From Bifidobacteriaceae bacterium (GTDB lineage: Bacteria > Actinomycetota > Actinomycetes > Actinomycetales > WQXJ01), in contig JAISSX010000059.1 of assembly GCA_031272885.1 (NCBI GenBank), forward strand, positions 6,021-70,020: DNA of 64,000 bases, in the 5' to 3' direction. A program made the position numbers and the translations under genes. Below the pieces are notes generated by a model, which worked only from the letters and a program-made list of their open reading frames with translations, was not told the DNA's origin and ran no database searches. Within the stretch, counting starts at the first letter, position 1. Each line of letters starts with the position of its first letter. Of the stretch, positions 3,672 to 50,310 are shown one piece after another.

Positions 3672-3686
3672 ACCGTGATTGGTCAA

Positions 3687-5670: not shown

Positions 5671-6182
5671 TGGGCGGGTCGGTGGCTCCGCTGATCCGCC
5701 CCATCACGGCCACGGATGGTGCATCAGAGTTCGATTGCGGCCAGAGCGATCTAAACACCTACCTCAGAGTGCGAGCCTGGCCAAACCACCGTGACGGTGC
5801 CGCCCGTTGTTTCGTAGCCACCCAGGACGGCCACGTCATTGGCTATTACGCCCTGGCCGCAGGCCAAGTTGAACGCAACCTTATGCCCGGGCGGGTGCGC
5901 CGGAACATGCCGGACCCGTTGCCGGCTATCGTCCTGGCAAGGCTGGCCATAGACCTGCAGTGGCAGGGCAAGGGCCTGGGTGCCGGCCTGCTCAAAGACG
6001 CCCTGCAACGAGCCCAATCGGCTAGCCAGATCATCGGTGCCCGCGTGCTGATTGTCCACGCCATTGACGAAGCGGCCCAGTCCTTCTACAACCATTTCGA
6101 CTTCAGCCCATTCCCAGGTGAGCCGCTCGCTCTGTTCATTCCTCTCTGGCAAGCCGGATCGCGTGGTGGGCGGGGAGCCTGA
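5670..6182 (+). CDS. GNAT-family acetyltransferase toxin (TacT-like)
   Basis: Paired with DUF1778. Acetyl-CoA-binding motif QWQGKGLGAGLL. Size about 170 aa. Confidence 0.8.
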   Translation: MGGSVAPLIRPITATDGASEFDCGQSDLNTYLRVRAWPNHRDGAARCFVATQDGHVIGYYALAAGQVERNLMPGRVRRNMPDPLPAIVLARLAIDLQWQGKGLGAGLLKDALQRAQSASQIIGARVLIVHAIDEAAQSFYNHFDFSPFPGEPLALFIPLWQAGSRGGRGA

Positions 6183-6248
6183 CCGTATCAGTCTCGTCGT
6201 ACCGGACGTCCGGCCGGCAGAGACACCAAGGCCGGGAGGAATTGACCA

Positions 6249-6310
6249 TTGACGCCCCGGGCGCCGCTTCGCTACGATCGGCTGCAACGTTGGAATACAA
6301 CGTTGTATCG
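6249..6310 (+). promoter_or_regulatory. Candidate sigma70-type promoter plus operator for the GH51 genes
   Basis: TTGACG (6249-6254), an 18-nt spacer, then TACGAT (6273-6278). Immediately downstream are gcaacgttgg and the perfect 14-bp palindrome atacaacgttgtat (6295-6308). Confidence 0.45.
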
Positions 6311-6372
6311 AACCGACCAGACCCGGCCCTGATCGACAACAGGCACCGTCGCCATCATCAACGGAGGGCAGC

Positions 6373-7890: not shown

Positions 7891-7915
7891 CAGGGCAAGG
7901 GAAAGGGGTGAACCC

Positions 7916-9400
7916 ATGCTTCGCGCAACCATCGCGCTGGACCGCGGCGCCACCGTGGCGCAGACCGATGACCGGCTGTTCTCCAGCTTCCTGGAGCACC
8001 TTGGCCGCGCCATTTACACCGGTATATTCGAACCGGACCACCCGGTGGCTGACAAGCGCGGCTTCCGCCGGGACGTGCTTGAGCTGGTGCGGGACCTGGG
8101 CGTGTCCCACGTGCGCTACCCGGGTGGCAACTTCCTGTCCGGCTACGACTGGTGGGACGGCGTAGGGCCGCGGGACCAGCGGCCAACGCGGCTGGACCTG
8201 GCCTGGCACTCGCTTGAACCCAACCTGTTCGGCTGGGGTGAGTTTGCCGACTGGTCCAAGGCCGCCGGCACCCAGATCATGGGCGCCGTCAACCTGGGCA
8301 CAGGCACCCCAATGGAGGCCGGCCACCTGCTGGAATACACCAACCGGCCGGCCGACACGCTGTGGGCGGACCGCCGCGTGGCCCACGGCCACCCGGAACC
8401 CTGGGATGTGCGCCTGTGGTGCCTGGGCAACGAGATGGACGGCGAATGGCAGATCGGCCACCTGGAGGCCAGGGCCTACGGCTTGAAGGCCAGGGAAGCG
8501 GCCAAGATCATGCGGCAGGTTGATCCGTCCATCGAACTGGTGGCTTGCGGCAGCGCCACCGTGCTGCAGCCCACCTTCCCGGCCTGGGACCGGGTGGTGC
8601 TGGAAGAGACCTTTGACCAGGTCGATTACCTATCCCTGCACCGCTACTACGAGAACGAAGGCAACGACCTGGACTTCCTGGCTTCCTTCGTGGACATGGG
8701 TGACTTCATCCACACCATTGGCGGCACGGTTGACCACGTGCGGGCGGTCAAGCGGTCCCGCAAGCAGATCTACCTGTCGTTCGACGAATGGAACGTGTGG
8801 TACCAGGCTCACCAAGAACCGCACCCTTGGGAACAGGCGCCGCGCCTGCTGGAAGACCGCTATTCCCTGCTGGACGCCCTGGTTTTCGCCGGCCTGGGCA
8901 TGACACTGGTGAACCACGCCGACCGGGTCAAGATTGCCTGCCTGGCCCAACTGGTCAACGTCATCGCCCCCATCCTGACCGAGCCCGGCGGCGGTGTGCT
9001 GAAGCAGACCATCTACTACCCGTTCCAACTTCTGTCCCGCTATGGCCGCGGCACCGTGTTGCGGCCGTCGGTGCAAGTGGAGCAGGTTGAGACCCGGTAC
9101 GGCGAGGCGCCTTTGGTGCATACCAGCGTGGTGGCCGATGCCGCCGGTGAAGTTGTGACGGTGTTCCTGCTGTCGATCGCGGACCAGCCGGTGGTGGCGG
9201 AGGTTGACCTGCGCGGTTTCGGGGCCCGCCGCCTGGTGTCGCACACCTGCCTGGAGGGACCGGACCTGGGTGCGGTCAACACCTTCGCAGTGCCCGATGC
9301 CGTGGTTCCCCGCGAGGTGGCCTGCCCGCCGGAGGTTGGCGTTTCTCACCAGGTCGAGTTGGGGCCGCGGTCGTTCCACGTGCTGCGGTTTGGGCTCTAG
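7916..9400 (+). CDS. Alpha-L-arabinofuranosidase, GH51 (second paralog)
   Basis: FSSFLEHLGRAIYTGIFEPDHP, VRYPGGNFLSGYDW, WCLGNEMDGEWQIG, 494 aa. Confidence 0.9.
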   Translation: MLRATIALDRGATVAQTDDRLFSSFLEHLGRAIYTGIFEPDHPVADKRGFRRDVLELVRDLGVSHVRYPGGNFLSGYDWWDGVGPRDQRPTRLDLAWHSLEPNLFGWGEFADWSKAAGTQIMGAVNLGTGTPMEAGHLLEYTNRPADTLWADRRVAHGHPEPWDVRLWCLGNEMDGEWQIGHLEARAYGLKAREAAKIMRQVDPSIELVACGSATVLQPTFPAWDRVVLEETFDQVDYLSLHRYYENEGNDLDFLASFVDMGDFIHTIGGTVDHVRAVKRSRKQIYLSFDEWNVWYQAHQEPHPWEQAPRLLEDRYSLLDALVFAGLGMTLVNHADRVKIACLAQLVNVIAPILTEPGGGVLKQTIYYPFQLLSRYGRGTVLRPSVQVEQVETRYGEAPLVHTSVVADAAGEVVTVFLLSIADQPVVAEVDLRGFGARRLVSHTCLEGPDLGAVNTFAVPDAVVPREVACPPEVGVSHQVELGPRSFHVLRFGL

Positions 9401-37665: not shown

Positions 37666-38001
37666 ATGGAGACTGTAACAGAGAGGCGGCCGCTCTCCCT
37701 GCCGGCGCAGCGCGCCATCCGCAAGTTGGGCGCGGACATCTCGCTGGCCCGGCGGCGGCGGCACTTCTCCCAGGCCTCGCTGGCTGAGCGCATGGGTGCG
37801 TCGCTGTCAACCGTGCGACGCATGGAGAAAGGGGACGAACGCGTTCCCATTCACTTCTACGCCCGGGCGCTGCAGGTCTTCGGCCAGCTCCAGGCCTTAG
37901 CCGACCTGCTGGATTCAGGCCAGGACGAGATTGGGCTGGCTCTAGCCGACGAACAACTGCCCAAGCGCATCAGGCCCTCCCGAGCCAAGGCAGGTTGGTA
38001 A
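37666..38001 (+). CDS. hipB: XRE-family HTH antitoxin (HipB-like)
   Basis: HTH RRRRHFSQASLAERMGASLSTVRRMEKGDERV. Its stop overlaps the hipA ATG (TAATG). Confidence 0.8.
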   Translation: METVTERRPLSLPAQRAIRKLGADISLARRRRHFSQASLAERMGASLSTVRRMEKGDERVPIHFYARALQVFGQLQALADLLDSGQDEIGLALADEQLPKRIRPSRAKAGW

Positions 38002-39287
38002 TGGCCGCCTCCGCCACCAGACAGGTGGTCGAAGTCTGTTTGGGGGCCCAGGCGGTCCCGGTCGGTTCGCTGACCTATGCCCTCCAGGGGCGCCGCGAGT
38101 ACAGCGCGTTTTCCTATGATGGCGGCTGGTTGAGCAGGCCAGATGGGTTCAATGTCTCGGCCGACTTGCAGTTCTTGCCGGGCTATCAGCCACACAAGGC
38201 GGCCACAGAGCGCGATTCGGTATTCTTCGGCGCCCTGGCAGACACGGAACCGGACACTTGGGGGAGGCGGGTGATTGCCCGCGCCCACGCCAAGCGACGG
38301 GCCCAGGACGCTAGCCTGGGGCCCCTGACCGAGATCGACCACCTGTTAGCGGTGGATGACTTCAGTCGTGTGGGCGCCCTCCGCCTGCGGGTGGCGGGAG
38401 GTTCATTCCGCGACACGGCCGCCGAGGGTCGCCGCCGCACGCCGCCACTGTTGGAACTGGCCAAGATCATACGGGCCAGTCAACTGGTCGAGGCCGGGCA
38501 GGAAACGGCCGAGGATCTGCGCTACCTCCAGGGCAAGGGCACATCTTTGGGTGGCATGCGGCCCAAGTGCACGCTGATCGACCGAGACGGTGGTCTCGCC
38601 ATCGGCAAGTTCCCCAGCGTGGGGGACCAACGCGAGGTGACGCGGGCCGAGGTCCTGGCGCTGCGTCTGGCCCGCCTGGCCGGTGTCGACGCGGCTCAGG
38701 CCAGGCTGGAACTGGTGGGGGAGTCACCTGTGGCGATCATCCGTCGGTTCGACCGCACTGCCGATGGCGGCCGGATCCCCTATCAATCGGCGGCCAGCTG
38801 GTTGGCGGCGCCAAGGGACGATGAACGCAGCTACGGTGAGATTGCCGATGCTCTGCGAGCCCACGGCCAAGTGCCGGTCGAGGACTGCCGGCAACTCTGG
38901 CGCCGCCTCGCTCTTAACCTGTTGATCACCAATGTTGACGATCACCTGCTGAACATGGGTTTCCTGCATGTGGCCAATGGACAATGGCGGCTGGCCCCTG
39001 CCTTCGACTTGAATCCCTTCCCGGACAAGGCCGCTGAGTCCAAGACCTGGCTGACCGAGGAGGACGGCCCGGTCAGCGACGTTGGCATGTTGTTGGGGCG
39101 AGCCGCTCTGTTTGACTTGACGGCCGATATGGCCCGATTGGCGCTTGGCCAGGTTGTCGCTGCCGTGGGGCAGTGGCGTACCGTGGCGCTGAGCCGGAAG
39201 GTGGGCCTTACACCGGCTGACCTGGACGAACTGACGCCGGCTTTCGATCACAACCGGCTGCGGGAGGCCGTGGCCGCCATCGGGTAG
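38001..39287 (+). CDS. hipA: HipA-family serine/threonine kinase toxin
   Basis: GKGTSLGGMRPKCTLIDRDGGLAIGKFPS, NLLITNVDDHLLNMGFLH, AFDLNP. Confidence 0.9.
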   Translation: MAASATRQVVEVCLGAQAVPVGSLTYALQGRREYSAFSYDGGWLSRPDGFNVSADLQFLPGYQPHKAATERDSVFFGALADTEPDTWGRRVIARAHAKRRAQDASLGPLTEIDHLLAVDDFSRVGALRLRVAGGSFRDTAAEGRRRTPPLLELAKIIRASQLVEAGQETAEDLRYLQGKGTSLGGMRPKCTLIDRDGGLAIGKFPSVGDQREVTRAEVLALRLARLAGVDAAQARLELVGESPVAIIRRFDRTADGGRIPYQSAASWLAAPRDDERSYGEIADALRAHGQVPVEDCRQLWRRLALNLLITNVDDHLLNMGFLHVANGQWRLAPAFDLNPFPDKAAESKTWLTEEDGPVSDVGMLLGRAALFDLTADMARLALGQVVAAVGQWRTVALSRKVGLTPADLDELTPAFDHNRLREAVAAIG

Positions 39288-39389: not shown

Positions 39390-40403
39390 GTGGCAGCAAG
39401 AGGCAGTACCCGCCGGGTGACCATTCACGATGTCGCGGCCGCCGCCGGCGTTTCATCCGCCACTGCGTCGCGGGTAGTCAACGGCGTGCCCACCGTGGAC
39501 CCGGAACTGGCCCGCCGCGTCTACGAAGCCATCGAAGCCTCCGGCTACGTGCTCAACCCGACCGCCCGGGCGCTGCGCCGCAGCGTCACCAGTTCGTGGC
39601 GGGTCATCATCCCTGACCTGCAGAATCCCTTCTTCATCGCCGTGGTGTCATCCCTGGAGGAGGCCGCCGGGCGGCACGGCTATTCGATCGTCTTGTCCAA
39701 CTCCGATGAGCGCTTGGACCGCGAACGCGAAGCGATTGAGGCGGCCGTGGCCGAACGAGTGGCGGGCGTGGTATTGGCGGTGGTGTCCGAGATCAAGTCA
39801 GATATTTCCCCGCTCACCCGGGCCGGCATTCCGGTGGTGCTGGTTGACCGGCGCACCAAGGCGTTCGATGGCGATGCCGTGTTTGTGGACAACCGCCTGA
39901 CCGGCGTTATTGCGGCGCAACACTTGATTCAGCGGGGCCGGCGGCGGCTGGCCTGCATTGCCGGCCGGGTTGACGTGACCGCCACGGAAGACCGGCTGTC
40001 CGGCTTCCGCGAAACCCTGGAGGCGGCCGGCATCGGGCTGCCGGACGAATACGTCTGCCGGTCTGACCGGCGCGTGGAGTCCGGTCAAGAGTCGCTCCAA
40101 TCACTCATGTCGCTGCCTCAGCCGCCGGACGCCCTGTATGTCACCAACGAACCGCTGACGGCTGGCGTGTTCCAGGCCGCCCAACAGTTGGGCATCGCCA
40201 TTCCGGAAGACTTGGCGCTGGTGGGCACCGATGACAACGCCTGGATGCGCATGGTGCGCCCCCAGGTCACCACGGTGCTGCAGCCGGCCAAGCGGATCGG
40301 CTGGCTGGCCGGCGAAATGATCGCCGCCCGCGCCAGTGGCGGCACGGTGGCCGGCGGCCTGGTCACCCTGATGCCCACCCTCGAAGCCCGCGAATCCTCC
40401 TGA
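39390..40403 (+). CDS. LacI-family transcriptional regulator
   Basis: GTG start with GGAGG 6 nt upstream. VTIHDVAAAAGVSSATASRVVNG HTH plus a periplasmic-binding-protein-like sugar-binding fold. Confidence 0.9.
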   Translation: MAARGSTRRVTIHDVAAAAGVSSATASRVVNGVPTVDPELARRVYEAIEASGYVLNPTARALRRSVTSSWRVIIPDLQNPFFIAVVSSLEEAAGRHGYSIVLSNSDERLDREREAIEAAVAERVAGVVLAVVSEIKSDISPLTRAGIPVVLVDRRTKAFDGDAVFVDNRLTGVIAAQHLIQRGRRRLACIAGRVDVTATEDRLSGFRETLEAAGIGLPDEYVCRSDRRVESGQESLQSLMSLPQPPDALYVTNEPLTAGVFQAAQQLGIAIPEDLALVGTDDNAWMRMVRPQVTTVLQPAKRIGWLAGEMIAARASGGTVAGGLVTLMPTLEARESS

Positions 40404-40559: not shown

Positions 40560-43500
40560 TTAGCGGAGTTCCAGGAGCACCGGGCGGCGGGCCGGCAGCA
40601 CCAGCGCGAAATCACGCGGGCCGTCGATGGCGCCCAGGTCGGTTTGCCGATCCTCTTCCACCAGGTAGACGTGCCGCTCGTTGGCGTCCCCGGCGCCATC
40701 GGGCTCATCCAGCCCATAGGCAGCGGGGTCAAGCGTGACCGTGACCGTCTGGGACTGTTCCAGCACGTTGACGAAGAAGAAGCCGCACTTCTCGGCGCCG
40801 TAACGCCAGGCGGCGTGCACCACCGAAGGTACGGTCAGCACACCTTCCTGTTGATACTCGGAGAAGTCAGCCGCGCAGTTGAAGTGGAACCAGTCCAAGT
40901 CCACCAAGGGCGCCTCGAACGCCAAGGGCCGCAGCATCTGGCCGTAGGCCAGGTAGGGCAGCGCGAAACCGGTCCGGGCCGCCGCCAGGCCGCGCACGTA
41001 GGCGGCCCGTTGCGGCACCGTCTGGTAGTAACGGTCCACCACGAAGGGTGAGAACGACTGCGACATGTCATCGCAGTGCCCGTCAATCACGTCCAGCGAA
41101 CTGAACTCGCCGTTGATCTCGAACAGCCCGCCCCACGCCACGATCCGGGCCGCCAGCCAGTAGAACAGGTCGCCCTGTTCGTCATCGAGCTTGGCCCAGC
41201 CGTCCAGGCGGACCGGCCCGTGGTCGTGGTAGACGAAGGCGAACAGCGGCACCTTGACACAGGTGCCTTCCCTGATCCAGTGGTAGAACGAACCGGCCTC
41301 GAAGGCGGACACCGGGCTGGCTTCGGCCCGGGCCTGGTAGAAGTCCATCTCGGACAGGAAAACCTCGTTCACCATCTCGCAGCCCAGCGGCACCACCTCG
41401 CCGCCGGCGGCCTCGCGGCAGGCCTGGCGCACCGTCGCCATCACGTCCAGGTAGGCGGCCGGCAGCACGGCCCCGCCGCCGGCCGGGTGGCCGTGGCTTT
41501 CATCCAGGCAGCTCAACAGAATGTTGTTCGGGCCAATATCCCAGTAGATCGCGGAGGCCCCCAGTTCGCGCACGGCCCCGGTGTCCCGGAAAACGGACAG
41601 TTGGGCCTGGAATGGCGGCACCGGGCACAGGAACGGGAAGCTGTACCGGTCCCGGGACAGCGTGTCGGTCTGGCCGGGTGTGTCCCGGCCGGGGATCTTC
41701 TGCATGGCGGCGGCCGCGGCCGGATAGTCCACCGAGCCCTTTTCCGAGAACGCCGTGGCAAACGTGAACGGCGCGAAATGGTCGCCCTGGGCCGCCAACG
41801 TTTCTAGGTAGCTGGGCGCTACGGGCGCTGGGAACACCATGTCGGTGCCACCGTTCATGTTGCCCAGGTAGTCGAAGCGGCCAAGCTGCCAATTGGGGCC
41901 GGTGATGTGGAAGATCGAGGTGCCCAGGTCGCGGTGCAGGTGCTCCAGCCAGGCCGTGCGGTCATACTGCGTCGAGATGCCCATGGCGGCGGCGCCGGTC
42001 TGTTCCAGCAGCCACACGGCCTTGTCTTCGCGCTGGCGCCACGGACCCTTGTCGCACCACGGCTGGGCCAGCGCCCAGGCGCGGTAGCGTTCGGCCGCCT
42101 CGTACCAGTTGCCCTCCACCAGGGCGCCCAGCCGCACGCTGTACGGCAGGTGCAGCTCGTTGCCGGGTTGCACCCCGCAGGCCGAATGAAGGAAGCGGAA
42201 TCGCAGGTGATCGTCCGGTTTGTCGCAGTCGAGCCATTTGACCCAGCCCGTACCGTCATCGGTCATGAAACTGAACCCGCCCACGTCCGCGCGGTAGTAG
42301 GCCATGATCTGGGTCGAGGCGCCGTTGAAACCCTCTGGGTACGGGCAGGGCAGCCCGCTACCGTCCGGGAATAGTTCCAGCGGGTCGGTGAACAGGAAAC
42401 CGGTACCGTACGGGGTCAGCAGGTAGTTGTGCCCGATGTCGCCCGCCACCAAGGTTCCCACGCCCCTCACCACGGGGTATTCCAGCAGGTAGACGGCCTG
42501 CTGGCCGGTATTGGTGACTTCGGCCGTGAAGACCGCCTCGCGGGCGTCCGGTTCCAGCACGATGGCGGCCCGCACGGTCAGGCCGTCCTGGCAGGCCCAC
42601 TGCAGATCGAGGCGGCCGGGGGCGGCGGCGGCGCTGAACTGGGCGCCGGCCTGGGCGGGCGTGAGCCAATCGGCTTCCGGCTGGCCGGGTGCGGTGGCCA
42701 GCTTCCAGGCCGGTTCGTCCGGTTGGGCCTGGTAGGCCGGGTCGATCAGGTCCAGGTTGTTGGCCTGGTTGGAGATGCGGGTCAGGGCGCCGGTGGTGGG
42801 GTCTAGTTGCAGGCGGAGATGGGGGTTTTGCAGGACCAGGGGGGTGCCTGGGGTGGGGGTAGATCCCGGGTCAAGCCCGGGATGACGGGGGGTGGCGTCG
42901 GGGTGACGGAGGGTGGCCGGGCGCGGCGGCCAGACGATGGCGGGCAGCCGGCTTGGCCCCAGCGGCGCCCGCTCAAGAGTCAAGTAGCCGAAGTCGAAGC
43001 CCACCTCGGTCGGTTCCCAGGACCGCACCGAGACGCCGGCCCGGGCGGCCCGGGCCGGCGCGGCCAACGTCAGCGCCGCAGTCCACTCATCGTCTGCGGC
43101 CAGCTTGTAGGCCAGGGTGTATTCAGTACCGCGCCGGGCGGCCTGCAGCCACACCCGCGGCTGGCCCAAGGGCACCGTCGCCAGGACGGGCCGGCCGGTG
43201 CGGGCCGCCACCAGGGTTTGGTCCCCGGTCAGGCCCCAATACACGGCGTCGCGCCCGCCAAACCAAACCAGCAGGCCGCCTTGGCATGCGGCCCCGCCGG
43301 CGTAAACAAGGGTGGCCACCGTCTCGGCCGTCCAGTCCCCCTCGCCCAGGTCATCGCGGTAAACCTGGGGGGCGTCATCGGCGGCCGGCGACAGGTCGAA
43401 AGCCCGGCCGCCGGGCAGGGCAATCCGCAGGTTCTTGTTCGGCCTGCCCTCCCCTTGGATGTTGGCGGGCAGGTCCACCACCGGCCCGTAGGCGGGCACG

Positions 43501-44075
43501 TAGCGGGTGCAGATCGGGCCGAACGTGCGGGCGTTGCCGGTGGTTTCGCCGATGTCGTCCGCGTCGGTGCCCGGCAAGGCGTGGAAGTCGGTTGAGTCGG
43601 CCTGGACGGACACCCCAGGCGGGGCCGTCAGCGCCACCCCAACGGCCACCACCGGTTGGGTGGCATCGCGGTATTGGCCGTCCGACACCCACCGCTGGCC
43701 GGCTTCGGCCTTGTGGAGCAGCGTGTAGATGTGGCCGGACTTCTCCACCCTGAGGTAGACCGAGCCCTGCCCCCAACCGCGGAACAGCACCGTGGTGGGT
43801 TGCCCGCCGCGCGTCAAGACCAGTTCACGGGTGCCGTTCCGCAGGCCCCACAGCAGGGTCTCACCGCCCGCCAACTCGACCGCCAACCCGGCCTGAAACT
43901 CCTGGCCAGGGGTGTATTCGGTCAGTTCCAGCCGCGTCTCGATGACGAAGTTGCGCCGGCCCAGGCCACCCGCCGCGCCGCCCAGGTTGGTGCGCATCAA
44001 GGCGTCTGTCAACGCGCCCGTGCCATCCGGCACGGCCAGGTGCAGGTTGGTCAACACTTCTTTCATCAGCGTCAA
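40560..44075 (-). CDS. Large cytoplasmic protein of unknown function. Two N-terminal ConA/LamG-like beta-sandwich modules plus a ~750-aa C-terminal region that looks like a glycoside-hydrolase barrel (DUF6259-like?).
   Basis: 1171 aa with no signal peptide. The start TTG (44075) overlaps the GH172 stop; an alternative ATG is at 44066. Last gene of the sugar-import operon. No family motif that I can name with confidence; conserved-looking acidic/His strings are IYWDIGPNN, CLDESHGHPAGGG and GCEMVNEVF. Confidence 0.8.
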   Translation of the reverse strand: MTLMKEVLTNLHLAVPDGTGALTDALMRTNLGGAAGGLGRRNFVIETRLELTEYTPGQEFQAGLAVELAGGETLLWGLRNGTRELVLTRGGQPTTVLFRGWGQGSVYLRVEKSGHIYTLLHKAEAGQRWVSDGQYRDATQPVVAVGVALTAPPGVSVQADSTDFHALPGTDADDIGETTGNARTFGPICTRYVPAYGPVVDLPANIQGEGRPNKNLRIALPGGRAFDLSPAADDAPQVYRDDLGEGDWTAETVATLVYAGGAACQGGLLVWFGGRDAVYWGLTGDQTLVAARTGRPVLATVPLGQPRVWLQAARRGTEYTLAYKLAADDEWTAALTLAAPARAARAGVSVRSWEPTEVGFDFGYLTLERAPLGPSRLPAIVWPPRPATLRHPDATPRHPGLDPGSTPTPGTPLVLQNPHLRLQLDPTTGALTRISNQANNLDLIDPAYQAQPDEPAWKLATAPGQPEADWLTPAQAGAQFSAAAAPGRLDLQWACQDGLTVRAAIVLEPDAREAVFTAEVTNTGQQAVYLLEYPVVRGVGTLVAGDIGHNYLLTPYGTGFLFTDPLELFPDGSGLPCPYPEGFNGASTQIMAYYRADVGGFSFMTDDGTGWVKWLDCDKPDDHLRFRFLHSACGVQPGNELHLPYSVRLGALVEGNWYEAAERYRAWALAQPWCDKGPWRQREDKAVWLLEQTGAAAMGISTQYDRTAWLEHLHRDLGTSIFHITGPNWQLGRFDYLGNMNGGTDMVFPAPVAPSYLETLAAQGDHFAPFTFATAFSEKGSVDYPAAAAAMQKIPGRDTPGQTDTLSRDRYSFPFLCPVPPFQAQLSVFRDTGAVRELGASAIYWDIGPNNILLSCLDESHGHPAGGGAVLPAAYLDVMATVRQACREAAGGEVVPLGCEMVNEVFLSEMDFYQARAEASPVSAFEAGSFYHWIREGTCVKVPLFAFVYHDHGPVRLDGWAKLDDEQGDLFYWLAARIVAWGGLFEINGEFSSLDVIDGHCDDMSQSFSPFVVDRYYQTVPQRAAYVRGLAAARTGFALPYLAYGQMLRPLAFEAPLVDLDWFHFNCAADFSEYQQEGVLTVPSVVHAAWRYGAEKCGFFFVNVLEQSQTVTVTLDPAAYGLDEPDGAGDANERHVYLVEEDRQTDLGAIDGPRDFALVLPARRPVLLELR

Positions 44076-45163
44076 GCCACTTCACAGTCCAACAGGCCGG
44101 GGGTGGGCGGCAGCGAGGCGGCCGCCGGGGCGTCCAGGTAGAACAAGGCGGTCGAGGCGATGTCGTCCTGCAGTTTGCGGTAGCGGTGCGGCAGGCCGTT
44201 GCCTTGGCCGGGGCCGATCCCCAACGCCTGCACGGTCACCCGCATGTCTTGGGCAAACGCGATGTCATCCACCACATGCCAGCGGTACATGCCGAACCGC
44301 TGCTGGCTGGAGTACAGCCCATCCGGCCGCAACACCTGGTTCAGGCCCAGGTAGGGCGTGGTGAACGCGGTGTAGCCCTGGCCGGGCACGTCGAAGTTCC
44401 AGGCGCCGCCAAAGTAGTCTTCAGTGCCGGTGCCGCAGATGGTGGGCCACTCGTCATCGCCGTCCAGGTAGAACTTGAGTTCACCCTCGCCCCACCAGCC
44501 GGGCGAGTTGGACTGCCAAGCCAGGTAGGTGCCCACGTAGCGGCCCACGCCGGAGGTGGTGTCCAGAATGGTGTGGACGCCATCGGGCACAAAGTGGGAG
44601 CGGCGCCACTGGCCGTGGAAGTAGAGGATCTGGTCCGGCAACTCGCCCAGGGCGTAGTCCACCTGCCAGTAGAGGTTGGCCGTGTTGGCCCCGATGTTCT
44701 CGACGGTCACCCGGGCGGCCTGGCGGAACGGCATGGGCCAGTAGCTGTTGAAGCCGCCGTTCGGGTTGACCGCGATCATCTGGGAGGACACCTGCGAAAA
44801 GGCGCACCAGCCGTTGCAGAAGAAGTCACCCAGCGGCACCTCGACGGCCGGGGTCTCGCTGCCCTCCCAATAGAAGCGCAGAACCAGGTTGCGCCACAGC
44901 AGGTAGTGGCAGGTCAGCCAAATGTGCCGGATGACGCCCGGGCCGGTGATGGCGGCCAGTTCGGCCGTTTCGCCCGGTTCCACGTCGATACACGGCGAGA
45001 CCTTCCAGCCCTGCCCCAAGCGGGAGGCCGCGGGGGCGCCGAAACCCTCGGTAGCAGCCCCGCCCGCGCCCTTGGCGCCGGTGAAGTTTTCCGCGCTGAT
45101 GGACCGGGATACCCAGGCCGATGGCGTGGCGAGACCGAGCAGGTCAGTGACCTTCGCGTTCAT
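44072..45163 (-). CDS. DUF2961 / GH172-family glycoside hydrolase (alpha-D-arabinofuranosidase / alpha-D-fructofuranosidase family), cytoplasmic
   Basis: GPGVIRHIWLT, LRFYWEGSETPAVEVPLGDFF, YWPMPF, FHGQWRR, WWGEGELKFYLDGDDEWPTICGTGTEDYFGGAW, YRWHVVDDIAF. Confidence 0.8.
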   Translation of the reverse strand: MNAKVTDLLGLATPSAWVSRSISAENFTGAKGAGGAATEGFGAPAASRLGQGWKVSPCIDVEPGETAELAAITGPGVIRHIWLTCHYLLWRNLVLRFYWEGSETPAVEVPLGDFFCNGWCAFSQVSSQMIAVNPNGGFNSYWPMPFRQAARVTVENIGANTANLYWQVDYALGELPDQILYFHGQWRRSHFVPDGVHTILDTTSGVGRYVGTYLAWQSNSPGWWGEGELKFYLDGDDEWPTICGTGTEDYFGGAWNFDVPGQGYTAFTTPYLGLNQVLRPDGLYSSQQRFGMYRWHVVDDIAFAQDMRVTVQALGIGPGQGNGLPHRYRKLQDDIASTALFYLDAPAAASLPPTPGLLDCEVA

Positions 45164-45218: not shown

Positions 45219-46073
45219 TTACTTGAACCCGGACAGACGCGCCCCTTGGACAATCTGCCGCTGGAAGATGAAATACAGAATCAAGACCGGAATGACCGAC
45301 AGTGTGGCGGCCGCCATCAGCAGGCCAAGCTCCGTGGTGCGCTCGCCGCGGAACTGGGTCAAGTACTGCTGGATCACGTACATCTTCGGGTCGGACATGG
45401 TGATGACCGCCCAGACGTAGGTGTTCCAACCGGCCAGGAAAACTGACATGCCGGACACCACGAAAATGCCCTTCGACATGGGCACAAAGATGCGCAGGAA
45501 GACCTGGAAGCGGCTGGCGCCATCGATCAAGGCGGCTTCTTCCAGGGAACTGGGGATGCCCAGGTAGAACTGGCGGATGAAGAAGATCTGACCGGCAGAA
45601 GCCATGGCCGGCAGGATCAGCACCCAGATCTTGTTGACCAGGTGCAACTCCGAGACCACCAGGAACGAGGTCAACAGGATGGTCATCCAGGGGATGAACA
45701 TGGTGCCGATCACCACCACCCAGGCCACCCGTTTGAAGATGAACTCAAGGCGGGCAAACACATAGGCCGCCATCGAGTTGACCACCAGGGAACCCAGCGC
45801 GAACAAGATGGCCACGGTGAAGGTGATGCCGATCGACCGGATGAAGGCCGGGTCATCCAGGATCTGCTTGTAGTTCTCCCACTTGAACACCTCGGGGAAG
45901 AACTTGAACGGGGTGCGGGTGACCTCGTTCTTCTCCTTCAGGCCGCACACGGCCATCCAGAGCAGTGGAAATACGGTGGCGACGACGAAACCGGCCACCA
46001 GCAACAGTTTGAAGGCCACCAGGCCCCACACCCGGGGGCCCTTGCCGGTGGTGCCGCGCAATGACTGAGCCAT
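45219..46073 (-). CDS. Carbohydrate ABC transporter permease
   Basis: 284 aa. EAA loop LEEAALIDGASRFQVFLRIFVP. ATGA overlap with the upstream permease. Confidence 0.9.
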   Translation of the reverse strand: MAQSLRGTTGKGPRVWGLVAFKLLLVAGFVVATVFPLLWMAVCGLKEKNEVTRTPFKFFPEVFKWENYKQILDDPAFIRSIGITFTVAILFALGSLVVNSMAAYVFARLEFIFKRVAWVVVIGTMFIPWMTILLTSFLVVSELHLVNKIWVLILPAMASAGQIFFIRQFYLGIPSSLEEAALIDGASRFQVFLRIFVPMSKGIFVVSGMSVFLAGWNTYVWAVITMSDPKMYVIQQYLTQFRGERTTELGLLMAAATLSVIPVLILYFIFQRQIVQGARLSGFK

Positions 46074-47020
46074 CAGACATCCACCGCCTTCTCGGATTGC
46101 AGCAAGCGGAAGATTAGGATGGAAATGCCGCCCATCACCAAGAACAAGATAAAGGCGGCCGCCATCGAGAAGCCCTTGGTTGCGTCAAACCGGAAATGCT
46201 GGAAGATGTACAGGTTGGGCACCAGGGTGGACTTGGCGGGGCCGCCATCGGTCATCACCATGGGGATTTCTAGGGCCTGCATGTTGGCCGTGAAACCGGT
46301 CACCACCAGGTACAGGAAGATGTTCTTCATCTGCGGCAGGGTGATGTAGCGCTGCTGGCGGAACCAGCCGGCGCCGTCCAGTTTGGCGGCCTCGTAGTAG
46401 GACTCGGGCACGTCGTTCATGGCTGACAGCATGATCAGGGCGGTCAGGCCAATGCCCACCCAGATGGTGGGTAACGTCAGCGCCGCCAGGGCCAGCTTGG
46501 TGTCCGCCAGCCAGCCTTGGGCTTCGACACCGAACACCCCCACCAGCCAGTTGGCGATGCCGCCCGGGTACTGGTAGATCATCTGGAACACCAGCGAGGC
46601 CACCACGCCAGAGATGACGGTGGGGATGTAGATGATGGCCTTCAGGAAGCCGGACAGCTTGGCGCCCACCGAGCGGGCCAGGGCACCGAAGATGAAGGCG
46701 ATGATCAGCATGACCGGCACCACCATGCAGGTGAACCGGAAGCCGCGGATAACCGAGTTCCAGAACTCGTCATCCTTCAGCACGTTGGTGAAGTTCCGCC
46801 ACCCCACGAAGCGGTTCGACTTGTAGAAGTTCCACTCATAGAAGCACAGGTAGATGGCGCGGATCAGCGGCCAGATGACGAAGATGGACAGGCCGATGAG
46901 GGCCGGGGCCAACATGCCGTAGGCCAACAGGTTGTGCCGGCGGCCGATGCCCAGCGAACTGGGTTTGGCCTTCTGCTTGCGCACCCGGCGTGATTCCGCC
47001 GGGCTGGTCTCAAGCGCCAT
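46073..47020 (-). CDS. Carbohydrate ABC transporter permease
   Basis: 315 aa. YEAAKLDGAGWFRQQRYITLP. Confidence 0.9.
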   Translation of the reverse strand: MALETSPAESRRVRKQKAKPSSLGIGRRHNLLAYGMLAPALIGLSIFVIWPLIRAIYLCFYEWNFYKSNRFVGWRNFTNVLKDDEFWNSVIRGFRFTCMVVPVMLIIAFIFGALARSVGAKLSGFLKAIIYIPTVISGVVASLVFQMIYQYPGGIANWLVGVFGVEAQGWLADTKLALAALTLPTIWVGIGLTALIMLSAMNDVPESYYEAAKLDGAGWFRQQRYITLPQMKNIFLYLVVTGFTANMQALEIPMVMTDGGPAKSTLVPNLYIFQHFRFDATKGFSMAAAFILFLVMGGISILIFRLLQSEKAVDV

Positions 47021-47067
47021 TGCTTGCTCCTAGGTTACGGGGGACGAGGTTAGGGGAATTGAGGGTT

Positions 47068-47123
47068 GGGGCCGCCCCGCGCGGTGGCGGGGACGGGGTC
47101 CCGCGGTGGTGCGGGGCGGCCCC
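47068..47123 (-). terminator. Intercistronic stem-loop between the SBP and permease genes
   Basis: Perfect 13-bp stem ggggccgccccgc / gcggggcggcccc with a 30-nt GC-rich loop. Same architecture as the hairpin at 3621-3671. Confidence 0.45.
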
Positions 47124-47160
47124 AGGAGGGTTATTGACTTGCTCTGCCTACCCGGTCGGG

Positions 47161-48630
47161 TTACTCGCCCGGGCCGGTGCCGGCAATGCCGAGCTGATCA
47201 ATCAGATCAACGATGGCGGATTGGGCGTCGGCACCGCAGGCAGCGGCGTCCTTGCCTTCCAGCATGGCGGCCTCAAGCTGCGTGCCGAAGGCCATCGAGA
47301 TGTCCCACGGATACTGGGCTTCGGCGATGGCGCTGGGCACGATGTCGGCCGTGATGGTAGCGCTGAACGGGTTGACGCTGTTCACGTTCGGGTCAGCGGC
47401 CATCACTTCGGCCACGGACTTGCGCGGCGACATCTTCGAGTACTGGGTGGTCTTGAAGTACTCGGAGATGACCTGTGGGTCGCCACCGTAGATGTAGTTG
47501 ATGAACTCAGCACTCTCCTGCGGGGCGTCAGACATGGCGTCCAGCACCAGCGTCCAGCCGCCCAGTGAGGCCGAGGCCTTGTCGGGCGAGTCGGTGGCCA
47601 GCGGCACCTTGGCCACAGCCGTGTTGGCGATCGAATCCGGATACTCGTTGATCAACTGGCCGGAAGCCCACGAGCCGTTGATCATCATGGCCAGGTTGCC
47701 CTCGCCGTAAGGCACCGCGTCGGTGTAGCCGGCCAGCGCCTGCTTCGGGATCAGACCCTCGGAATAGAGCGTGCTGTACAGCTCGAACAATGGCGCGAAC
47801 GCCTCATCGTCCGCCAGGCCTTCCGACCAATCGCCGTTCAGCATCAGGTGACCGGCCAGGCCGTACTGAATGCCCCACGTGGTCCAGGACATTTCGGTGG
47901 CGTTCTGGGCCAGGCCAAGAGCAAAGGCGCCTTCGGGCAGGGTCGGCTTGAGGGCGCGGGCCCACTCGACCAGTTCGTCGAACGTCTTGGGCGGGCTGGC
48001 CGGATCCAGGCCGGCGGCCTCGACCAGGTCGGTGCGGTAGAACAGCACCATCGACGGTTCGACCAGCAGCGGGTAGGCGTAGTAGCCGCCATCCACGGTC
48101 ACCATGGCCAGCACGTTCTCTTGCAGGTCGGCCCAGGATTCGGCCGGGATCAGGTCCTTCATGTCCTGGATCAGGCCCTGGGTGGCCAGGGTGGCGATCT
48201 GGTTGTAGGCCCGGGTGTAGACGTCCGGCGCCGTGCCGGAGGCCTGGGCCGCGGTCAGTTTCTGATCCCAGGCGTCGGCCGGCACCACTTCGAGGTTGAC
48301 GAAGATCGCACTCTGCGAAGCGTTGAAGGCGTCAACCTGGGACTTGTACCAGGCGTCCTCGGCGTCCTGGAAGTGCTGCATCCAGAACACGACCTCGGTG
48401 GCGCCCTCGGGGACTACCACTTCTTCGCCGGTGTCGCCGGTGTCGCCGGTGTCGGTGGTGTCGGTGGTGTCGGTGGTGCCCGTGTCGGTGGTGCTGGTGT
48501 CGCCGCCGCTGGTGGCGGTGGAGTCGCCATCGCCGCTGCTGCTGTCACCGCCGCAACCGGCCATGACCAGGCCGAGGGCAGAAATGGCGGCCACAACGGC
48601 CAGTTTGCCGCGTAGTGTCTTGCGGATCAT
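47161..48630 (-). CDS. Sugar ABC transporter substrate-binding lipoprotein
   Basis: Lipobox LVMAGCGG, a (T/D/G)-repeat linker, and a solute-binding fold. AAGGAGG RBS. Confidence 0.9.
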   Translation of the reverse strand: MIRKTLRGKLAVVAAISALGLVMAGCGGDSSSGDGDSTATSGGDTSTTDTGTTDTTDTTDTGDTGDTGEEVVVPEGATEVVFWMQHFQDAEDAWYKSQVDAFNASQSAIFVNLEVVPADAWDQKLTAAQASGTAPDVYTRAYNQIATLATQGLIQDMKDLIPAESWADLQENVLAMVTVDGGYYAYPLLVEPSMVLFYRTDLVEAAGLDPASPPKTFDELVEWARALKPTLPEGAFALGLAQNATEMSWTTWGIQYGLAGHLMLNGDWSEGLADDEAFAPLFELYSTLYSEGLIPKQALAGYTDAVPYGEGNLAMMINGSWASGQLINEYPDSIANTAVAKVPLATDSPDKASASLGGWTLVLDAMSDAPQESAEFINYIYGGDPQVISEYFKTTQYSKMSPRKSVAEVMAADPNVNSVNPFSATITADIVPSAIAEAQYPWDISMAFGTQLEAAMLEGKDAAACGADAQSAIVDLIDQLGIAGTGPGE

Positions 48631-48722: not shown

Positions 48723-49994
48723 TCACCCGCCGCTGCCCTCGGCCAAGGTGATCTTGGTGAGGAAAGTGTTGTAGTCGTTCCACAGCGACATCGAGAAGTA
48801 GACGTCCGGGCCGTCCAGGCTCCACGGGTGCATGAAGCCGCCGTAGAGGCCGGGGAAGTCGGTTTGGGCGGCGATGACGGTGGCGTCTGACCACGGCCCG
48901 GTCGGCTCGGGCGCGGTGCGCAGCACGATGTCGTAGCTGTCCTTGATGTAGATGGCCAGCCACTGACCGGCCCAGGTGTTGTAGCCCACCGACAGTTCGC
49001 CCACCAGGCCGTCCAGCACGATGGCGGCCTTGGATTCGGCGTACGGGTTGTCCGCCGTGGACACCCAGTCGGTGCCGTCCCAGTATTCGAAGGCGGCCAT
49101 GTTCAGCGTGTACAGCTCGGTGGGGGCGATGCGGGCTACGTGGCCGGAACCGAAGCGCCCGTTGGGCGTGCCGAACATGTAGACCCACTGGCCATCGGGG
49201 CTGTTGGCGAAGGCCATCATCTGGAACGGATCGTCTTGGGGGCCGTCTGCCGCGCCGTTGGACCAGATGGCGTCCGGGTCCATGGTCCAGTTTTCGCCGT
49301 CGTCATCCGAGTAGGCCAGGCCCGAATACTGGGTCCACCAGATGCCCGGGTCGCCCCATTGCCGCACGGACATGTAGGCGATGATCTGGCGCCAGTTGCC
49401 GTTGCCGTCGTTGACGGCGATGCCGGCCGTGGGGATCACGGTGTACTGCCCGGTGCCTGAGGTCACCTTGTCGCTGGGCAGGATCTCCTTGGAGAACTGG
49501 TACACCCCAGTTGAGGGCGCCAGTACCACGGACTCCCAGGTCAGGCCGTCGGTCAGGTCACGGTCGGTGGAGCGGAACAGGGTGTTGGAGCGCCAGTGGC
49601 CCTGCATTTCAGGGGTGTTGAAGGTATCGCCGAAGGCGGCCAGGATGCGGCCCTCGCCGTCGTCCCACATGATGCCCAGGTCGGTGCCGCCCACCGAGCC
49701 CCATTCGTCCGTGTCGGTGGGGACAAGGGCGTCTGGGCCGGTCATCTGCGCCACGATGGAGGCGGTGGCGGCCACCGGGCTGGTGGCCTTGGTCGGCTCA
49801 GGCGTGGTGGTTTCGGCGGGGGTGGCGCTCTCGGTCGTCTGGGCCGCCTCGGTGCCCGATGCCGTCCCGGCGGCCGTGGGGCTTGGGGCGCCATCGGGCT
49901 CGCTGCTGTTGCAGCCGGCTACCAGGACCATGGCTAGCACTCCCATCGTGGCCGCGGTGAGGCGGCGAGGGCGGGTGAGGCGGTTCTGAGCCAC
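48723..49994 (-). CDS. Secreted DUF4185 (GH183-like, putative endo-D-arabinanase family) lipoprotein
   Basis: GTG at 49994 preceded by AAGGAGG. Lipobox LVAGCNSS. GGTDLGIMWDDGEGRILAAFGDTFN, WRSNTLFRSTDRDLTDGLTW, and C-terminal LYGGFMHPWSL..VYFSMSLWNDYNTFL. Confidence 0.7.
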   Translation of the reverse strand: MAQNRLTRPRRLTAATMGVLAMVLVAGCNSSEPDGAPSPTAAGTASGTEAAQTTESATPAETTTPEPTKATSPVAATASIVAQMTGPDALVPTDTDEWGSVGGTDLGIMWDDGEGRILAAFGDTFNTPEMQGHWRSNTLFRSTDRDLTDGLTWESVVLAPSTGVYQFSKEILPSDKVTSGTGQYTVIPTAGIAVNDGNGNWRQIIAYMSVRQWGDPGIWWTQYSGLAYSDDDGENWTMDPDAIWSNGAADGPQDDPFQMMAFANSPDGQWVYMFGTPNGRFGSGHVARIAPTELYTLNMAAFEYWDGTDWVSTADNPYAESKAAIVLDGLVGELSVGYNTWAGQWLAIYIKDSYDIVLRTAPEPTGPWSDATVIAAQTDFPGLYGGFMHPWSLDGPDVYFSMSLWNDYNTFLTKITLAEGSGG

Positions 49995-50061
49995 TGCCTT
50001 GACCTCCTTTGGCCAACGTCTCGGTGACACTGCTCGGTGTACTGCTGGGGCTCTTGCTCTC

Positions 50062-50079
50062 TGAGATATCGATTGCTCA
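50062..50079. promoter_or_regulatory. LacI-type operator (site 2)
   Basis: TGAGATATCGATTGCTCA, centred 76 nt upstream of the 49994 start. Confidence 0.6.
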
Positions 50080-50138
50080 CCGACCTGGTTTGCGGCCGGT
50101 TTGTGGGTGTTTGACAGGGAATAAGCCTAGAACCGGGG

Positions 50139-50156
50139 TGAGTAATCGATCTCTCA
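50139..50156. promoter_or_regulatory. LacI-type operator (site 3)
   Basis: TGAGTAATCGATCTCTCA. Its reverse complement TGAGAGATCGATTACTCA matches site 1 except at the two outermost bases. Lies 77 bp from site 2. Confidence 0.6.
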
Positions 50157-50310
50157 CGAGTCTAGTCCGCCCCGTCTCTAGCTGTCAAAGGTTCCTTGTA
50201 CGGGGGAAGGTCACAGTTTGATAACAATGCCGCCCAACCCTGGCCTCCCCATCCCCTGGCCCCTGGCCCCTGGCCCCAGGGGTCCAGGCCCCAGGGACAG
50301 GGGCAAGGGG

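Follow-up and report, generated by a model that had tools for sequence, protein, structure and literature searches.

A DUF6259 protein encoded at the end of a predicted D-arabinan utilisation operon represents a candidate new glycosidase family with predicted GH129-like architecture

The window examined here is a 64-kb stretch of DNA from a Bifidobacteriaceae bacterium. Its minus strand carries, in the order of transcription, two DUF4185/GH183 genes, the SBP gene and two permease genes of a sugar ABC importer, a GH172 gene and, last, a gene for a DUF6259 protein, next to which lies a convergent LacI-family regulator gene (Table 1). With GH183, GH172 and importer genes clustered on one strand, the region has the make-up of a D-arabinan utilisation locus as known from Microbacterium arabinogalactanolyticum and Dysgonomonas gadei. 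The GH183 of the window matches EndoMA1 (PDB 8hhv, E = 9e-75), and inspection of the N-terminus of the GH172 protein revealed no signal peptide. A tblastn search for GH116 homologues gave none in the window, and none was seen in the ~6 kb past its left end, in agreement with a preliminary description of this DNA that had noted no GH116-like gene here.

The TTG start codon of the DUF6259 gene overlaps the TGA stop codon of the upstream GH172 gene (gcTTGAcg), and an in-frame stop two codons 5' of the TTG makes a longer ORF impossible. An alternative ATG lies 9 nt after the TTG. The IMG annotation uses the TTG start (1171 aa), while NCBI entry MDR1825562.1, named 'DUF6259 domain-containing protein' and derived from a Bifidobacteriaceae bacterium MAG, uses the ATG start (1168 aa). 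Coupling to the GH172 gene is tight with either start, the two ORFs overlapping by 4 nt or lying 5 nt apart. The 1171-aa ORF reported in the preliminary description was confirmed from the sequence, and all eight peptide strings quoted there were found where expected in the protein. No signal peptide was found and the protein is probably cytoplasmic; gene order and the missing signal both agree with its earlier placement as the cytoplasmic last cistron of the import operon.

Table 1. Positions of the DUF6259 gene, its predicted domains and the neighbouring genes in the window
Feature	Coordinates	Strand	Remarks
Whole ORF	40560..44075	-	1171 aa from TTG (44075) or 1168 aa from ATG (44066); stop codon 40560-40562
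ConA/LamG-like beta-sandwich module 1	43572..44045	-	AF2 strands at residues 8-165 (ATG numbering)
ConA/LamG-like beta-sandwich module 2	42969..43436	-	AF2 strands at residues 211-366; core pLDDT 70-90
Pro-rich linker, ConA-like modules to enzyme unit	42840..42968	-	Low pLDDT
N-terminal beta-sandwich of DUF6259 unit	42120..42839	-	AF2 pLDDT 94; Asp607 42255-42257, Lys613 42237-42239
Predicted (beta/alpha)8 barrel	40941..42119	-	Asp846 41538-41540, Glu900 41376-41378, Glu904 41364-41366
C-terminal beta-sandwich of enzyme unit	40563..40940	-	AF2 strands, fragment residues 662-775
GH172 (DUF2961), upstream, ExoMA1-like exo-alpha-D-arabinofuranosidase	44072..45163	-	Pfam E=2e-87; PDB 8ic8 E=8.6e-138
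Sugar ABC importer	45219..48630	-	Lipoprotein SBP 47161-48630; permeases 46073-47020 and 45219-46073
Two secreted DUF4185/GH183 endo-D-arabinanase homologues	48723..53515	-	48723-50030 (lipoprotein-type signal) and 50420-53515 (FIVAR and FG-GAP repeats)
LacI-family regulator, convergent	39390..40403	+	Probably locus regulator; LacI gene present in 24/37 related loci

Residues 642–952 of the protein (positions 41220–42152) matched Pfam DUF6259 (PF19773) with 66.3 bits, above the cut-off of 28.7, which bears out an earlier guess of a DUF6259-type C-terminal region; 59 of 59 aligned relatives matched the same entry. In an exhaustive search, the C-terminal unit of ~760 aa had about 1,090 clusters of homologues at E ≤ 1e-3, 449 at E ≤ 1e-10 and 111 at E ≤ 1e-30, so that the label 'orphan' given previously does not hold. 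Most of these clusters are standalone proteins of 730–820 aa. Most relatives are without a signal peptide; some carry TAT or lipoprotein signals, indicating that cellular location varies within the family. A few members gave weak matches to Alpha-amylase_C, DUF3459 or GH30C at the C-terminal beta-sandwich, and distant members occur in unrelated genomic contexts. In the literature that could be searched we found neither a mention of DUF6259 or PF19773 nor a link between this family and D-arabinan-digesting enzymes.

The two N-terminal modules had been described as resembling ConA/LamG/DUF1349-type beta-sandwiches. Both are all-beta in an AF2 model of moderate confidence (pLDDT 65), and Foldseek comparison of this model identified GH43 C-terminal ConA-like domains, laminin LG pairs, galectins and the DUF1349 structure 3mep, with E values of ~1e-8 to 1e-6 for the GH43 C-domain, laminin G and 3mep. 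Together with a sub-threshold DUF1349 match in module 1 (19.5 bits, cut-off 32.4), these results are in line with the original assignment. The alignment shows module 1 to be ~25 N-terminal residues shorter than its homologues, and module 2 is 40–45% identical to the homologues P0002, P0158 and P0159. Relatives encode the ConA/LamG-like modules as a separate upstream gene, and the position of the Pro-rich linker corresponds to the N-terminus or the TAT signal of standalone homologues.

The AF2 model of the enzyme unit had a pLDDT of 94.2 and a pTM of 0.94. Structure prediction, which had been set beforehand as a test, yielded a GH-type (beta/alpha)8 barrel whose strand ends bear near-invariant Asp and Glu residues. 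Over 99 relatives, conservation was 0.99 for Asp846, 0.98 for Glu900, Glu904 and Asp607, 0.97 for Lys613 and 0.89 for Asp911; His950 of the barrel is also conserved. Asp846 closes predicted strand 448–451 of the model and Glu900 closes strand 502–505. Asp846 is the candidate nucleophile, and Glu900 and Glu904 are candidates for the acid/base. Residues Cys817, Cys856, His861 and His863 are absent together when they are absent from relatives, and probably form a metal site. The barrel, its near-invariant residues and the lack of any mention of the family in the searchable literature all favour the earlier proposal that DUF6259 is a candidate new glycosidase family.

Foldseek searches of the PDB placed DagB/ZgGH129 (ZGAL_3152), an alpha-1,3-(3,6-anhydro)-D-galactosidase from Zobellia galactanivorans, first among the matches of the enzyme unit (5opq, E = 2.7e-24, TM 0.53–0.61). 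A GH36 alpha-galactosaminidase came next, followed by the GH129 protein NagBb, GH101, GH36 alpha-galactosidases and GH31, including a GH31 transglucosylase. The model has the three-domain architecture of GH129, with 5opq, 8rzk (also DagB) and 5wzp (NagBb) among its best matches. Identity to the solved structural relatives is only 9–14%, and all of them are retaining enzymes for alpha-D-type (or beta-L-type) bonds. DagB is the only solved protein reached by a DUF6259 family sequence profile, which matches its N-domain (E = 8e-6). A PLFxxVYHE motif after a barrel strand, common to DagB and the DUF6259 family, was re-found weakly. A barrel-only profile and a phmmer search of the protein gave no PDB match, and Pfam GH129 was absent at E ≤ 1 from the protein and from 59 relatives.

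The resemblance to DagB extends to domain order, which in DagB is a distorted N-terminal beta-sandwich, a TIM barrel and a C-terminal beta domain (PMC5698469). DagB requires Asp486, Glu517 and Asp202, the last supplied by the N-domain of the partner subunit, and its Lys208 contacts the ligand (PMC5698469). Both proteins have Asp and Glu in the barrel, and Asp607 and Lys613 have the same spacing of six residues (Asp-x5-Lys) as Asp202 and Lys208 of DagB. However, identity to DagB is 14%, the barrel is undetectable by sequence, the DUF6259 protein is ~100 residues longer and has the Cys2His2 quartet, and its genomic setting concerns D-arabinan rather than carrageenan. NagBb, the GH129 alpha-N-acetylgalactosaminidase of Bifidobacterium bifidum (5wzn/5wzp), and the GH101 endo-alpha-GalNAc-ases show the same three-domain alpha-glycosidase architecture (TM 0.55–0.69 on target), although they are 12–13% identical, give no sequence-level match and act on mucin O-glycans. 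These retaining enzymes have an Asp on strand 4 (Asp435 in NagBb, as Asp486 in DagB) and a Glu after strand 5, and the candidate residues of the predicted barrel may be placed alike. NagBb uses Ca2+ near the sugar (PMC8106489). The GH36 enzymes (FpGalNase, 9ayu/8x1b, and the alpha-galactosidases) and GH31 belong to the same fold class and are all retaining alpha-glycosidases, with 9–11% identity and no sequence match. The acid/base of GH36 and GH31 is on a different strand.

We lean towards a cytoplasmic GH129-like retaining glycosidase that belongs to the core of D-arabinan utilisation loci and likely cleaves an alpha-D linkage. The gene would be the final cistron of the operon and share its expression with the genes for the importer and for the ExoMA1-like GH172. 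The two secreted GH183 endo-arabinanases would release D-arabino-oligosaccharides, and the DUF6259 protein would act on them after import. Hydrolysis would proceed by double displacement: the nucleophile would be Asp846, which ends predicted barrel strand 4, and the acid/base would be Glu900 or Glu904, after strand 5. The N-domain may assist through Asp607 and Lys613, possibly between the subunits of a dimer as for DagB, and the Cys2His2 site may bind metal. Since alpha-D-type (or beta-L-type) bonds are the targets of every structural relative, the cleaved bond is most likely alpha-D. An alpha-D-arabinofuranosyl linkage, or an oligosaccharide context, in which the enzyme would complement GH172 is the foremost candidate. 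The GH172 enzymes ExoMA1 and Dg67, intracellular as the DUF6259 protein probably is and represented by its operon neighbour, probably share this anomeric class (alpha-D, retaining), although their fold is an unrelated double jelly-roll oligomer.

Genomic context was surveyed in 37 related loci of at least 12 kb each. GH172 and/or GH183 lay within 10 kb in 34 of them by tblastn (32 by ORF clustering), a strong co-occurrence across genomes, which the preliminary description had named as a test. The DUF6259 gene is usually an immediate neighbour of the SBP and permease genes and shares their strand, and D-arabinose catabolic genes (FucI with FGGY, or PfkB-SIS) are recurrent. One locus, L001, combines DUF6259 genes with FucI, FGGY and an ABC transporter and has no GH172, GH183 or GH116 in 22 kb, which fits an enzyme that releases D-arabinose.

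The preliminary description proposed that the protein may be an exo-beta-D-arabinofuranosidase that removes beta-1,2 caps and replaces GH116 in this locus. The GH116 enzyme ExoMA2 of M. arabinogalactanolyticum is intracellular, acts after GH183 and an ABC importer, and removes beta caps that block GH172 until they are gone (PMC10509167); its gene and that of the DUF6259 protein lie in loci of one kind. No GH116 was seen locally in the window or in the closest-clade loci (L001/L011, L002, L003/L012 and L007), and GH116 alternates between clades with another protein, UNK675, which shows that different proteins can take on the cap-removing role. However, GH116 and DUF6259 occur together in 13 of the 37 loci without mutual exclusion, several of which are compact single-strand operons with GH172 and GH183 (e.g. 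FucI-DUF6259-SBP-permease-permease-GH172-GH183-GH116) where redundancy is unlikely. Moreover, beta-D-Araf is of the stereochemical class opposite to the bonds cut by the structural relatives, like alpha-L-fucose, and the genome is visible in part only, such that GH116 may lie elsewhere. Replacement of GH116 is thus not the general role of DUF6259 and, as an idea still applicable to the small clade of this protein without local GH116, it is unlikely. The protein is not itself a GH116 (subfamily 4) enzyme: it has no Pfam GH116 match, its predicted TIM barrel is unrelated to the (alpha/alpha)6 barrel of ExoMA2, and GH116 genes coexist with its own. On the reading that we favour, DUF6259 provides an additional core activity of D-arabinan loci rather than the usual stand-in for GH116.

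Mycobacterial arabinan carries alpha-D-galactosamine on branched Araf and, in LAM, alpha-mannose caps. The DUF6259 protein could remove these or another alpha-linked hexose from imported oligosaccharides, where such decorations would otherwise block exo-arabinofuranosidases. Alpha-GalNAc-ases, an alpha-galactosaminidase and alpha-galactosidases lead the fold matches, and a fourth conserved enzyme could serve decorations given that the three known families suffice for undecorated arabinan. We nevertheless regard this role as improbable: at 9–14% identity the matches reflect architecture and not specificity, DUF6259 is near-universal in these loci among soil, gut and hot-spring taxa while only certain mycobacteria have GalN and Man caps, genes for GalN or mannose catabolism do not recur in the related loci, and L001 pairs DUF6259 with FucI and FGGY only. 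Still further from our reading, and very improbable, is a protein that would either transfer or phosphorolyse arabino-oligosaccharides, as a retaining transglycosylase or a phosphorylase, or lack catalysis altogether and serve for binding or as a scaffold. Related clans include transglycosylases, as the GH31 match illustrates, and phosphorylases such as GH13 sucrose phosphorylase, and the tight linkage to transporter genes would suit a protein that is not a hydrolase. The near-invariant Asp/Glu set argues for catalysis, however; no sugar-1-phosphate mutase is recurrent in the related loci, and the existence of secreted versions makes phosphorolysis unlikely there.

Some observations bear against an alpha-D-arabinofuranosidase. 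Pure D-arabinan was fully degraded in vitro by GH183, GH172 and GH116 (PMC10509167), so that an extra alpha-arabinofuranosidase is not obviously needed, and the GH172 of the window is of the broad ExoMA1/Dg67 type. In addition, alpha-D-Araf is a 1,2-trans furanoside, unlike the 1,2-cis pyranosides that the known structural relatives use as substrates. We tentatively put forward, as a less probable reading, an activity on mycobacterial-type D-arabinan beyond those of GH172, GH183 and GH116, such as release of a beta-capped disaccharide or cleavage of branch or junction linkages within oligosaccharides after import. The retaining machinery would be GH129-like, with an N-domain Asp possibly supplied in trans across a dimer and the Cys2His2 metal site as an auxiliary. 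In the Bifidobacteriaceae and Chloroflexia clade the enzyme would have a dedicated ConA-like partner, either fused or hitch-hiking on the TAT signal of the DUF6259 protein.

D-arabinan is the scaffold of mycobacterial arabinogalactan (AG) and lipoarabinomannan (LAM). Enzymes that cut it have become known only in recent years, namely GH172, GH183 and one subfamily of GH116, and are in use for studies of cell-wall structure and LAM antigens. In most of the Gram-positive D-arabinan loci identified in this work a putative fourth enzyme family stands beside the transporter, which implies either that natural substrates call for more than the three families of the published scheme or that there is another route. 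Characterisation of DUF6259 would probably lead to a new CAZy family and would annotate >1,000 protein clusters that now bear this label; it could also provide a further tool for AG/LAM analysis and TB diagnostics.

The genes around the DUF6259 gene in the window are listed in the table. Close homology links the GH172 (DUF2961) protein to ExoMA1, a crystallised exo-alpha-D-arabinofuranosidase (8ic8, E=8.6e-138), and the smaller GH183 (DUF4185) protein to EndoMA1, an endo-D-arabinanase (8hhv, E=9e-75). A Gram-positive D-arabinan utilisation locus has been described for Microbacterium arabinogalactanolyticum (PMC10509167). From the gene set and the two homologies we conclude that the window contains a locus of this type. 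A GH116 homologue was found neither in the window, as the preliminary description had stated, nor in the ~6 kb past its left end, where GH127, MatE and LacI genes are located (L062). The larger GH183 homologue is an unusually elaborate one. The LacI gene of the locus is convergent on the 3' end of the DUF6259 gene, and this regulator is immediately preceded by a gene for a HipA-like toxin kinase. The window also contains a second sugar locus with two GH51-like genes; in a sister MAG (L003/L012) the same GH51 pair directly adjoins the DUF6259 locus.

Coordinates of genes and features discussed in the text (L-numbers are related loci or contigs; fragment residues refer to the C-terminal 776 residues of the window's DUF6259 protein)
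Location	Coordinates	Strand	Feature
Window	50420-53515	minus	secreted DUF4185 protein, 1031 aa; a FIVAR domain and five FG-GAP repeats behind the catalytic domain
Window	48723-50030	minus	lipoprotein-type DUF4185 protein
Window	47161-48630	minus	lipoprotein solute-binding protein
Window	46073-47020	minus	permease
Window	45219-46073	minus	permease
Window	44072-45163	minus	DUF2961/GH172 protein, no signal peptide
Window	40560-44075	minus	DUF6259 protein, no signal peptide; 1171 codons, TTG at 44075, stop at 40560
Window	43950-44075		start of first module, lacking ~25 residues
Window	41487-41627		codons of the Cys2His2 quartet
Window	37995-39287	plus	HipA-like toxin kinase
Window	540-9400		second sugar locus: BNR-repeat protein, solute-binding protein, two permeases, two GH51-like alpha-L-arabinofuranosidases
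L001	7513-9990 and 10001-12406		ConA-like repeat protein and DUF6259 enzyme, adjacent genes
L002	7637-9991 and 10001-12391		ConA-like repeat protein and DUF6259 enzyme, adjacent genes
L007	7816-12406		ConA-like repeat protein and DUF6259 enzyme
L035	13864-16050	plus	UNK675
L039	13835-15853		UNK675
L005	8287-9912	plus	PfkB kinase-SIS isomerase fusion
L044	8095-9897	plus	PfkB kinase-SIS isomerase fusion
L039	6828-9191		DUF6259 homologue, lipoprotein-type signal
L059	7534-9849 and 9860-12142		tandem DUF6259 homologues, lipoprotein-type signals
Fragment	residues 18-257		beta-sandwich (AlphaFold)
Fragment	residues ~260-650		alpha/beta barrel (AlphaFold)
Fragment	residues 650-776		C-terminal beta-sandwich (AlphaFold)

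The TTG codon overlaps the TGA of the upstream GH172 gene (gcTTGAcg), in agreement with the overlap noted earlier, and an in-frame stop two codons upstream fixes the maximum length of the protein. IMG annotates the TTG start; NCBI uses an ATG 9 nt downstream (MDR1825562.1, 1168 aa, 'DUF6259 domain-containing protein', Bifidobacteriaceae bacterium MAG). As this gene and the GH172 gene overlap by 4 nt with the first start and lie 5 nt apart with the second, co-translation is plausible with either. A consensus scan detected no terminator or promoter between the DUF6259 gene and lacI. The gene is predicted to be co-transcribed with those for the oligosaccharide importer and the exo-alpha-D-arabinofuranosidase.

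The protein had been described as an orphan with a possible resemblance to DUF6259, and all 8 of the peptide strings then quoted are present in it. Residues 642-952 match Pfam DUF6259 above the curated cut-off, so that the resemblance was correct. A word-indexed search with the full-length query matched only the protein itself and a ConA-repeat protein, and searches of NCBIfam and of PDB sequences with the protein returned nothing. When the C-terminal 776 residues were used in an exhaustive HMMER search, 1,090 clusters were obtained at E<=1e-3, 111 of them at E<=1e-30, and the orphan reading was rejected. As most matches were standalone proteins of 730-820 aa that aligned end to end, the conserved unit comprises the C-terminal ~760 residues, with the two N-terminal modules as an addition. 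Identity with Apionate_lact_C was also rejected, since this faint precomputed Pfam match occurred in a single relative.

AlphaFold predicted two all-beta N-terminal modules from a shallow alignment (overall pLDDT 65, cores 70-90). Foldseek matched them to GH43 C-terminal ConA-like domains, laminin LG pairs, tandem galectins and the DUF1349 structure 3mep, and Pfam matched the first module weakly to DUF1349; the ConA/LamG/DUF1349-type description thus holds at the fold level. In the closest relatives (L001, L002 and L007) the modules form a separate repeat protein of 724-825 aa encoded directly upstream of DUF6259. Separate genes of this kind occur in Chloroflexia and in other metagenomic contigs. 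The Bifidobacteriaceae MAGs have the fused form; besides the protein in the window, two proteins show it, P0159 from a Bifidobacteriaceae MAG and P0158 from a metagenome assembly in ENA. At L001, a Chloroflexia locus, the repeat protein carries a signal of the Sec type and the DUF6259 enzyme beside it a twin-arginine (TAT) signal; the two are extracellular in that locus and cytoplasmic in the window. In L002 the enzyme has a TAT signal and the ConA-like partner has no signal, so that hitch-hiking of the partner through TAT is possible. The first module in the window lacks ~25 N-terminal residues present in all relatives, including P0158, P0159 and P0002, and its first ~35 residues were predicted with low confidence. 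The missing segment was not found upstream in other frames. Gene order in the sister MAG (LacI-DUF6259-SBP-perm-perm-GH172; SBP, solute-binding protein; perm, permease) is unlike that of the window, which suggests that the 5' end of the gene was clipped by rearrangement.

Modelling of the enzyme unit with a 59-sequence alignment was of high confidence (pLDDT 94.2, pTM 0.94). The best Foldseek match in the PDB was DagB/ZgGH129, an exo-alpha-1,3-(3,6-anhydro)-D-galactosidase (E=2.7e-24), followed in order by the GH36 alpha-galactosaminidase of Flavonifractor, the GH129 alpha-GalNAc-ase NagBb, GH101 endo-alpha-GalNAc-ases, GH36 alpha-galactosidases and GH31, all at 9-14% identity. By sequence, the family profile matched the N-domain of DagB (E=8e-6) and weakly recovered DagB PLFNLVYHE opposite PLFAFVYHD of our protein. 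A barrel-only profile found no PDB sequence, and an N-domain-only profile matched residues 19-144 at most. Pfam GH129 matched neither the protein nor its relatives; DUF6259 is a distant relative of GH129 and not a member. The model shows a predicted GH-type fold with the conserved carboxylate set intact in a protein of an uncharacterised family, and we consider a non-hydrolytic role very improbable.

In the numbering from the TTG start, the most conserved polar residues among 99 relatives were Asp846 (0.99), Glu900, Glu904 and Asp607 (0.98 each), Lys613 (0.97), His861 and His863 (0.91), Asp911 (0.89), Cys856 and His950 (0.87) and Cys817 (0.82). In the model, the strands IYWD and PLGCE end at Asp846 and Glu900, respectively. 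In retaining enzymes of the GH13, GH101 and GH129 type the Asp belongs to strand 4 and the Glu to strand 5, and by analogy the predicted placement of Asp846 and Glu900 would be the same. DagB depends on Asp486 (the counterpart of the NagBb nucleophile), Glu517 and Glu531, as well as on Asp202, which the N-domain of the other subunit contributes, and its Lys208 touches the ligand (PMC5698469). Asp607-x5-Lys613 has the spacing and domain location of Asp202/Lys208, and we infer that these residues are candidate equivalents, as are Asp846 and Asp486. Cys817, Cys856, His861 and His863 were CCHH in 81 of the 99 sequences; where lost, the quartet was replaced as a set and the carboxylates were kept. 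This pattern suggests a putative auxiliary metal site near the candidate nucleophile. Export of some members through TAT is consistent with a protein that is loaded with a cofactor.

When one genome per species was scanned, 51 loci were obtained, from Chloroflexota, Thermomicrobiales, Gaiellaceae, a Bifidobacteriaceae MAG, Paenibacillus, Bacillus, Virgibacillus and many Clostridia. Among the 37 loci that span 12 kb or more, tblastn placed GH172 and/or GH183 within 10 kb in 34, the co-occurrence that the preliminary description had proposed to look for. Unbiased clustering of all neighbouring ORFs in the same loci gave SBP in 32, GH172 in 28, GH183 and LacI in 24 each, GH116 in 11, PfkB-SIS in 10 and FucI in 5. 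The DUF6259 gene directly adjoins transporter genes on the same strand in nearly all loci. As typical operons, Anaerotaenia torta and three Bacillota MAGs have AraC-FucI-DUF6259-SBP-perm-perm-GH172-GH183-GH116, Paenibacillus has GH183-SBP-perm-perm-DUF6259-GH172-UNK675, and metagenomic contigs repeat the patterns of the genome loci. These data establish a DUF6259 subfamily as a core component of D-arabinan loci. As a distant member (27% identity) has an unrelated genomic context, the linkage applies to a large subfamily and not necessarily to all DUF6259 proteins. Lipoprotein-type signals on some Clostridia homologues indicate that the enzyme is extracellular in a minority of organisms.

Several other genes recur in these loci. 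UNK675 (~670-730 aa) follows GH172 in 8 D-arabinan loci (L029, L030, L034, L035, L039 and L058, with partial copies in L025 and L047) and is absent from the window. As all 8 lack GH116, UNK675 and GH116 exclude each other in the tree, and UNK675 is a candidate alternative beta-D-arabinofuranosidase; Pfam and PDB sequence searches returned nothing beyond faint GH127-catalytic and C5-epimerase hints. The PfkB-SIS fusion tends to occur in place of the FucI-FGGY pair, suggesting a different D-arabinose route, possibly via an arabinose 5-kinase and an arabinose-5-phosphate isomerase to ribulose-5-P. An AXE1-type esterase gene at the locus edge in Paenibacillus (L029, L030, L035, L058) and Virgibacillus (L020) may serve to deacylate succinylated or acylated arabinan.

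GH183, GH172 and GH116 together degrade pure D-arabinan completely in vitro (PMC10509167). As DUF6259 coexists with all three in compact operons, it should add something. All structural relatives of the enzyme unit act on alpha-D-type bonds. Because related GH families normally share their anomeric class, an alpha-D linkage is favoured over beta-D-Araf. Replacement of GH116, proposed initially, is rejected as the general role of the family because both genes share loci (13 of 37 by tblastn); for the protein in the window it is unlikely given its alpha-D-acting relatives, although neither GH116 nor UNK675 was seen locally in its clade. Removal of alpha-linked decorations is likewise improbable. 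In L001, two DUF6259 genes accompany a transporter and the D-arabinose catabolism genes FucI and FGGY, and GH172, GH183 and GH116 were not found in its 22 kb, a gene set that favours release of arabinose over removal of decorations. Our first-ranked explanation, which as a whole we hold to be somewhat better than evenly balanced, is an alpha-D-arabinofuranosyl-specific activity complementing GH172; the exact linkage is much less certain. On this reading the protein would be a retaining enzyme that hydrolyses D-arabinan fragments after their import; Asp846 would be its nucleophile and either Glu900 or Glu904 its acid/base.

Literature searches on the family, on recent D-arabinan glycosidases and on ZgGH129 uncovered no study that characterises DUF6259. 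No paper mentioning DUF6259 or PF19773 was found in the searchable literature, and the D-arabinan degradation papers checked name only GH172, GH183 and GH116. Together with the predicted GH-type fold and the D-arabinan linkage, this result favours the original proposal of a candidate new glycosidase family. The fold and the kind of system were already known; the DUF6259 family and its D-arabinan link are new, as its activity would be. DUF6259 is likely to constitute a new CAZy family, and one with good experimental tractability.
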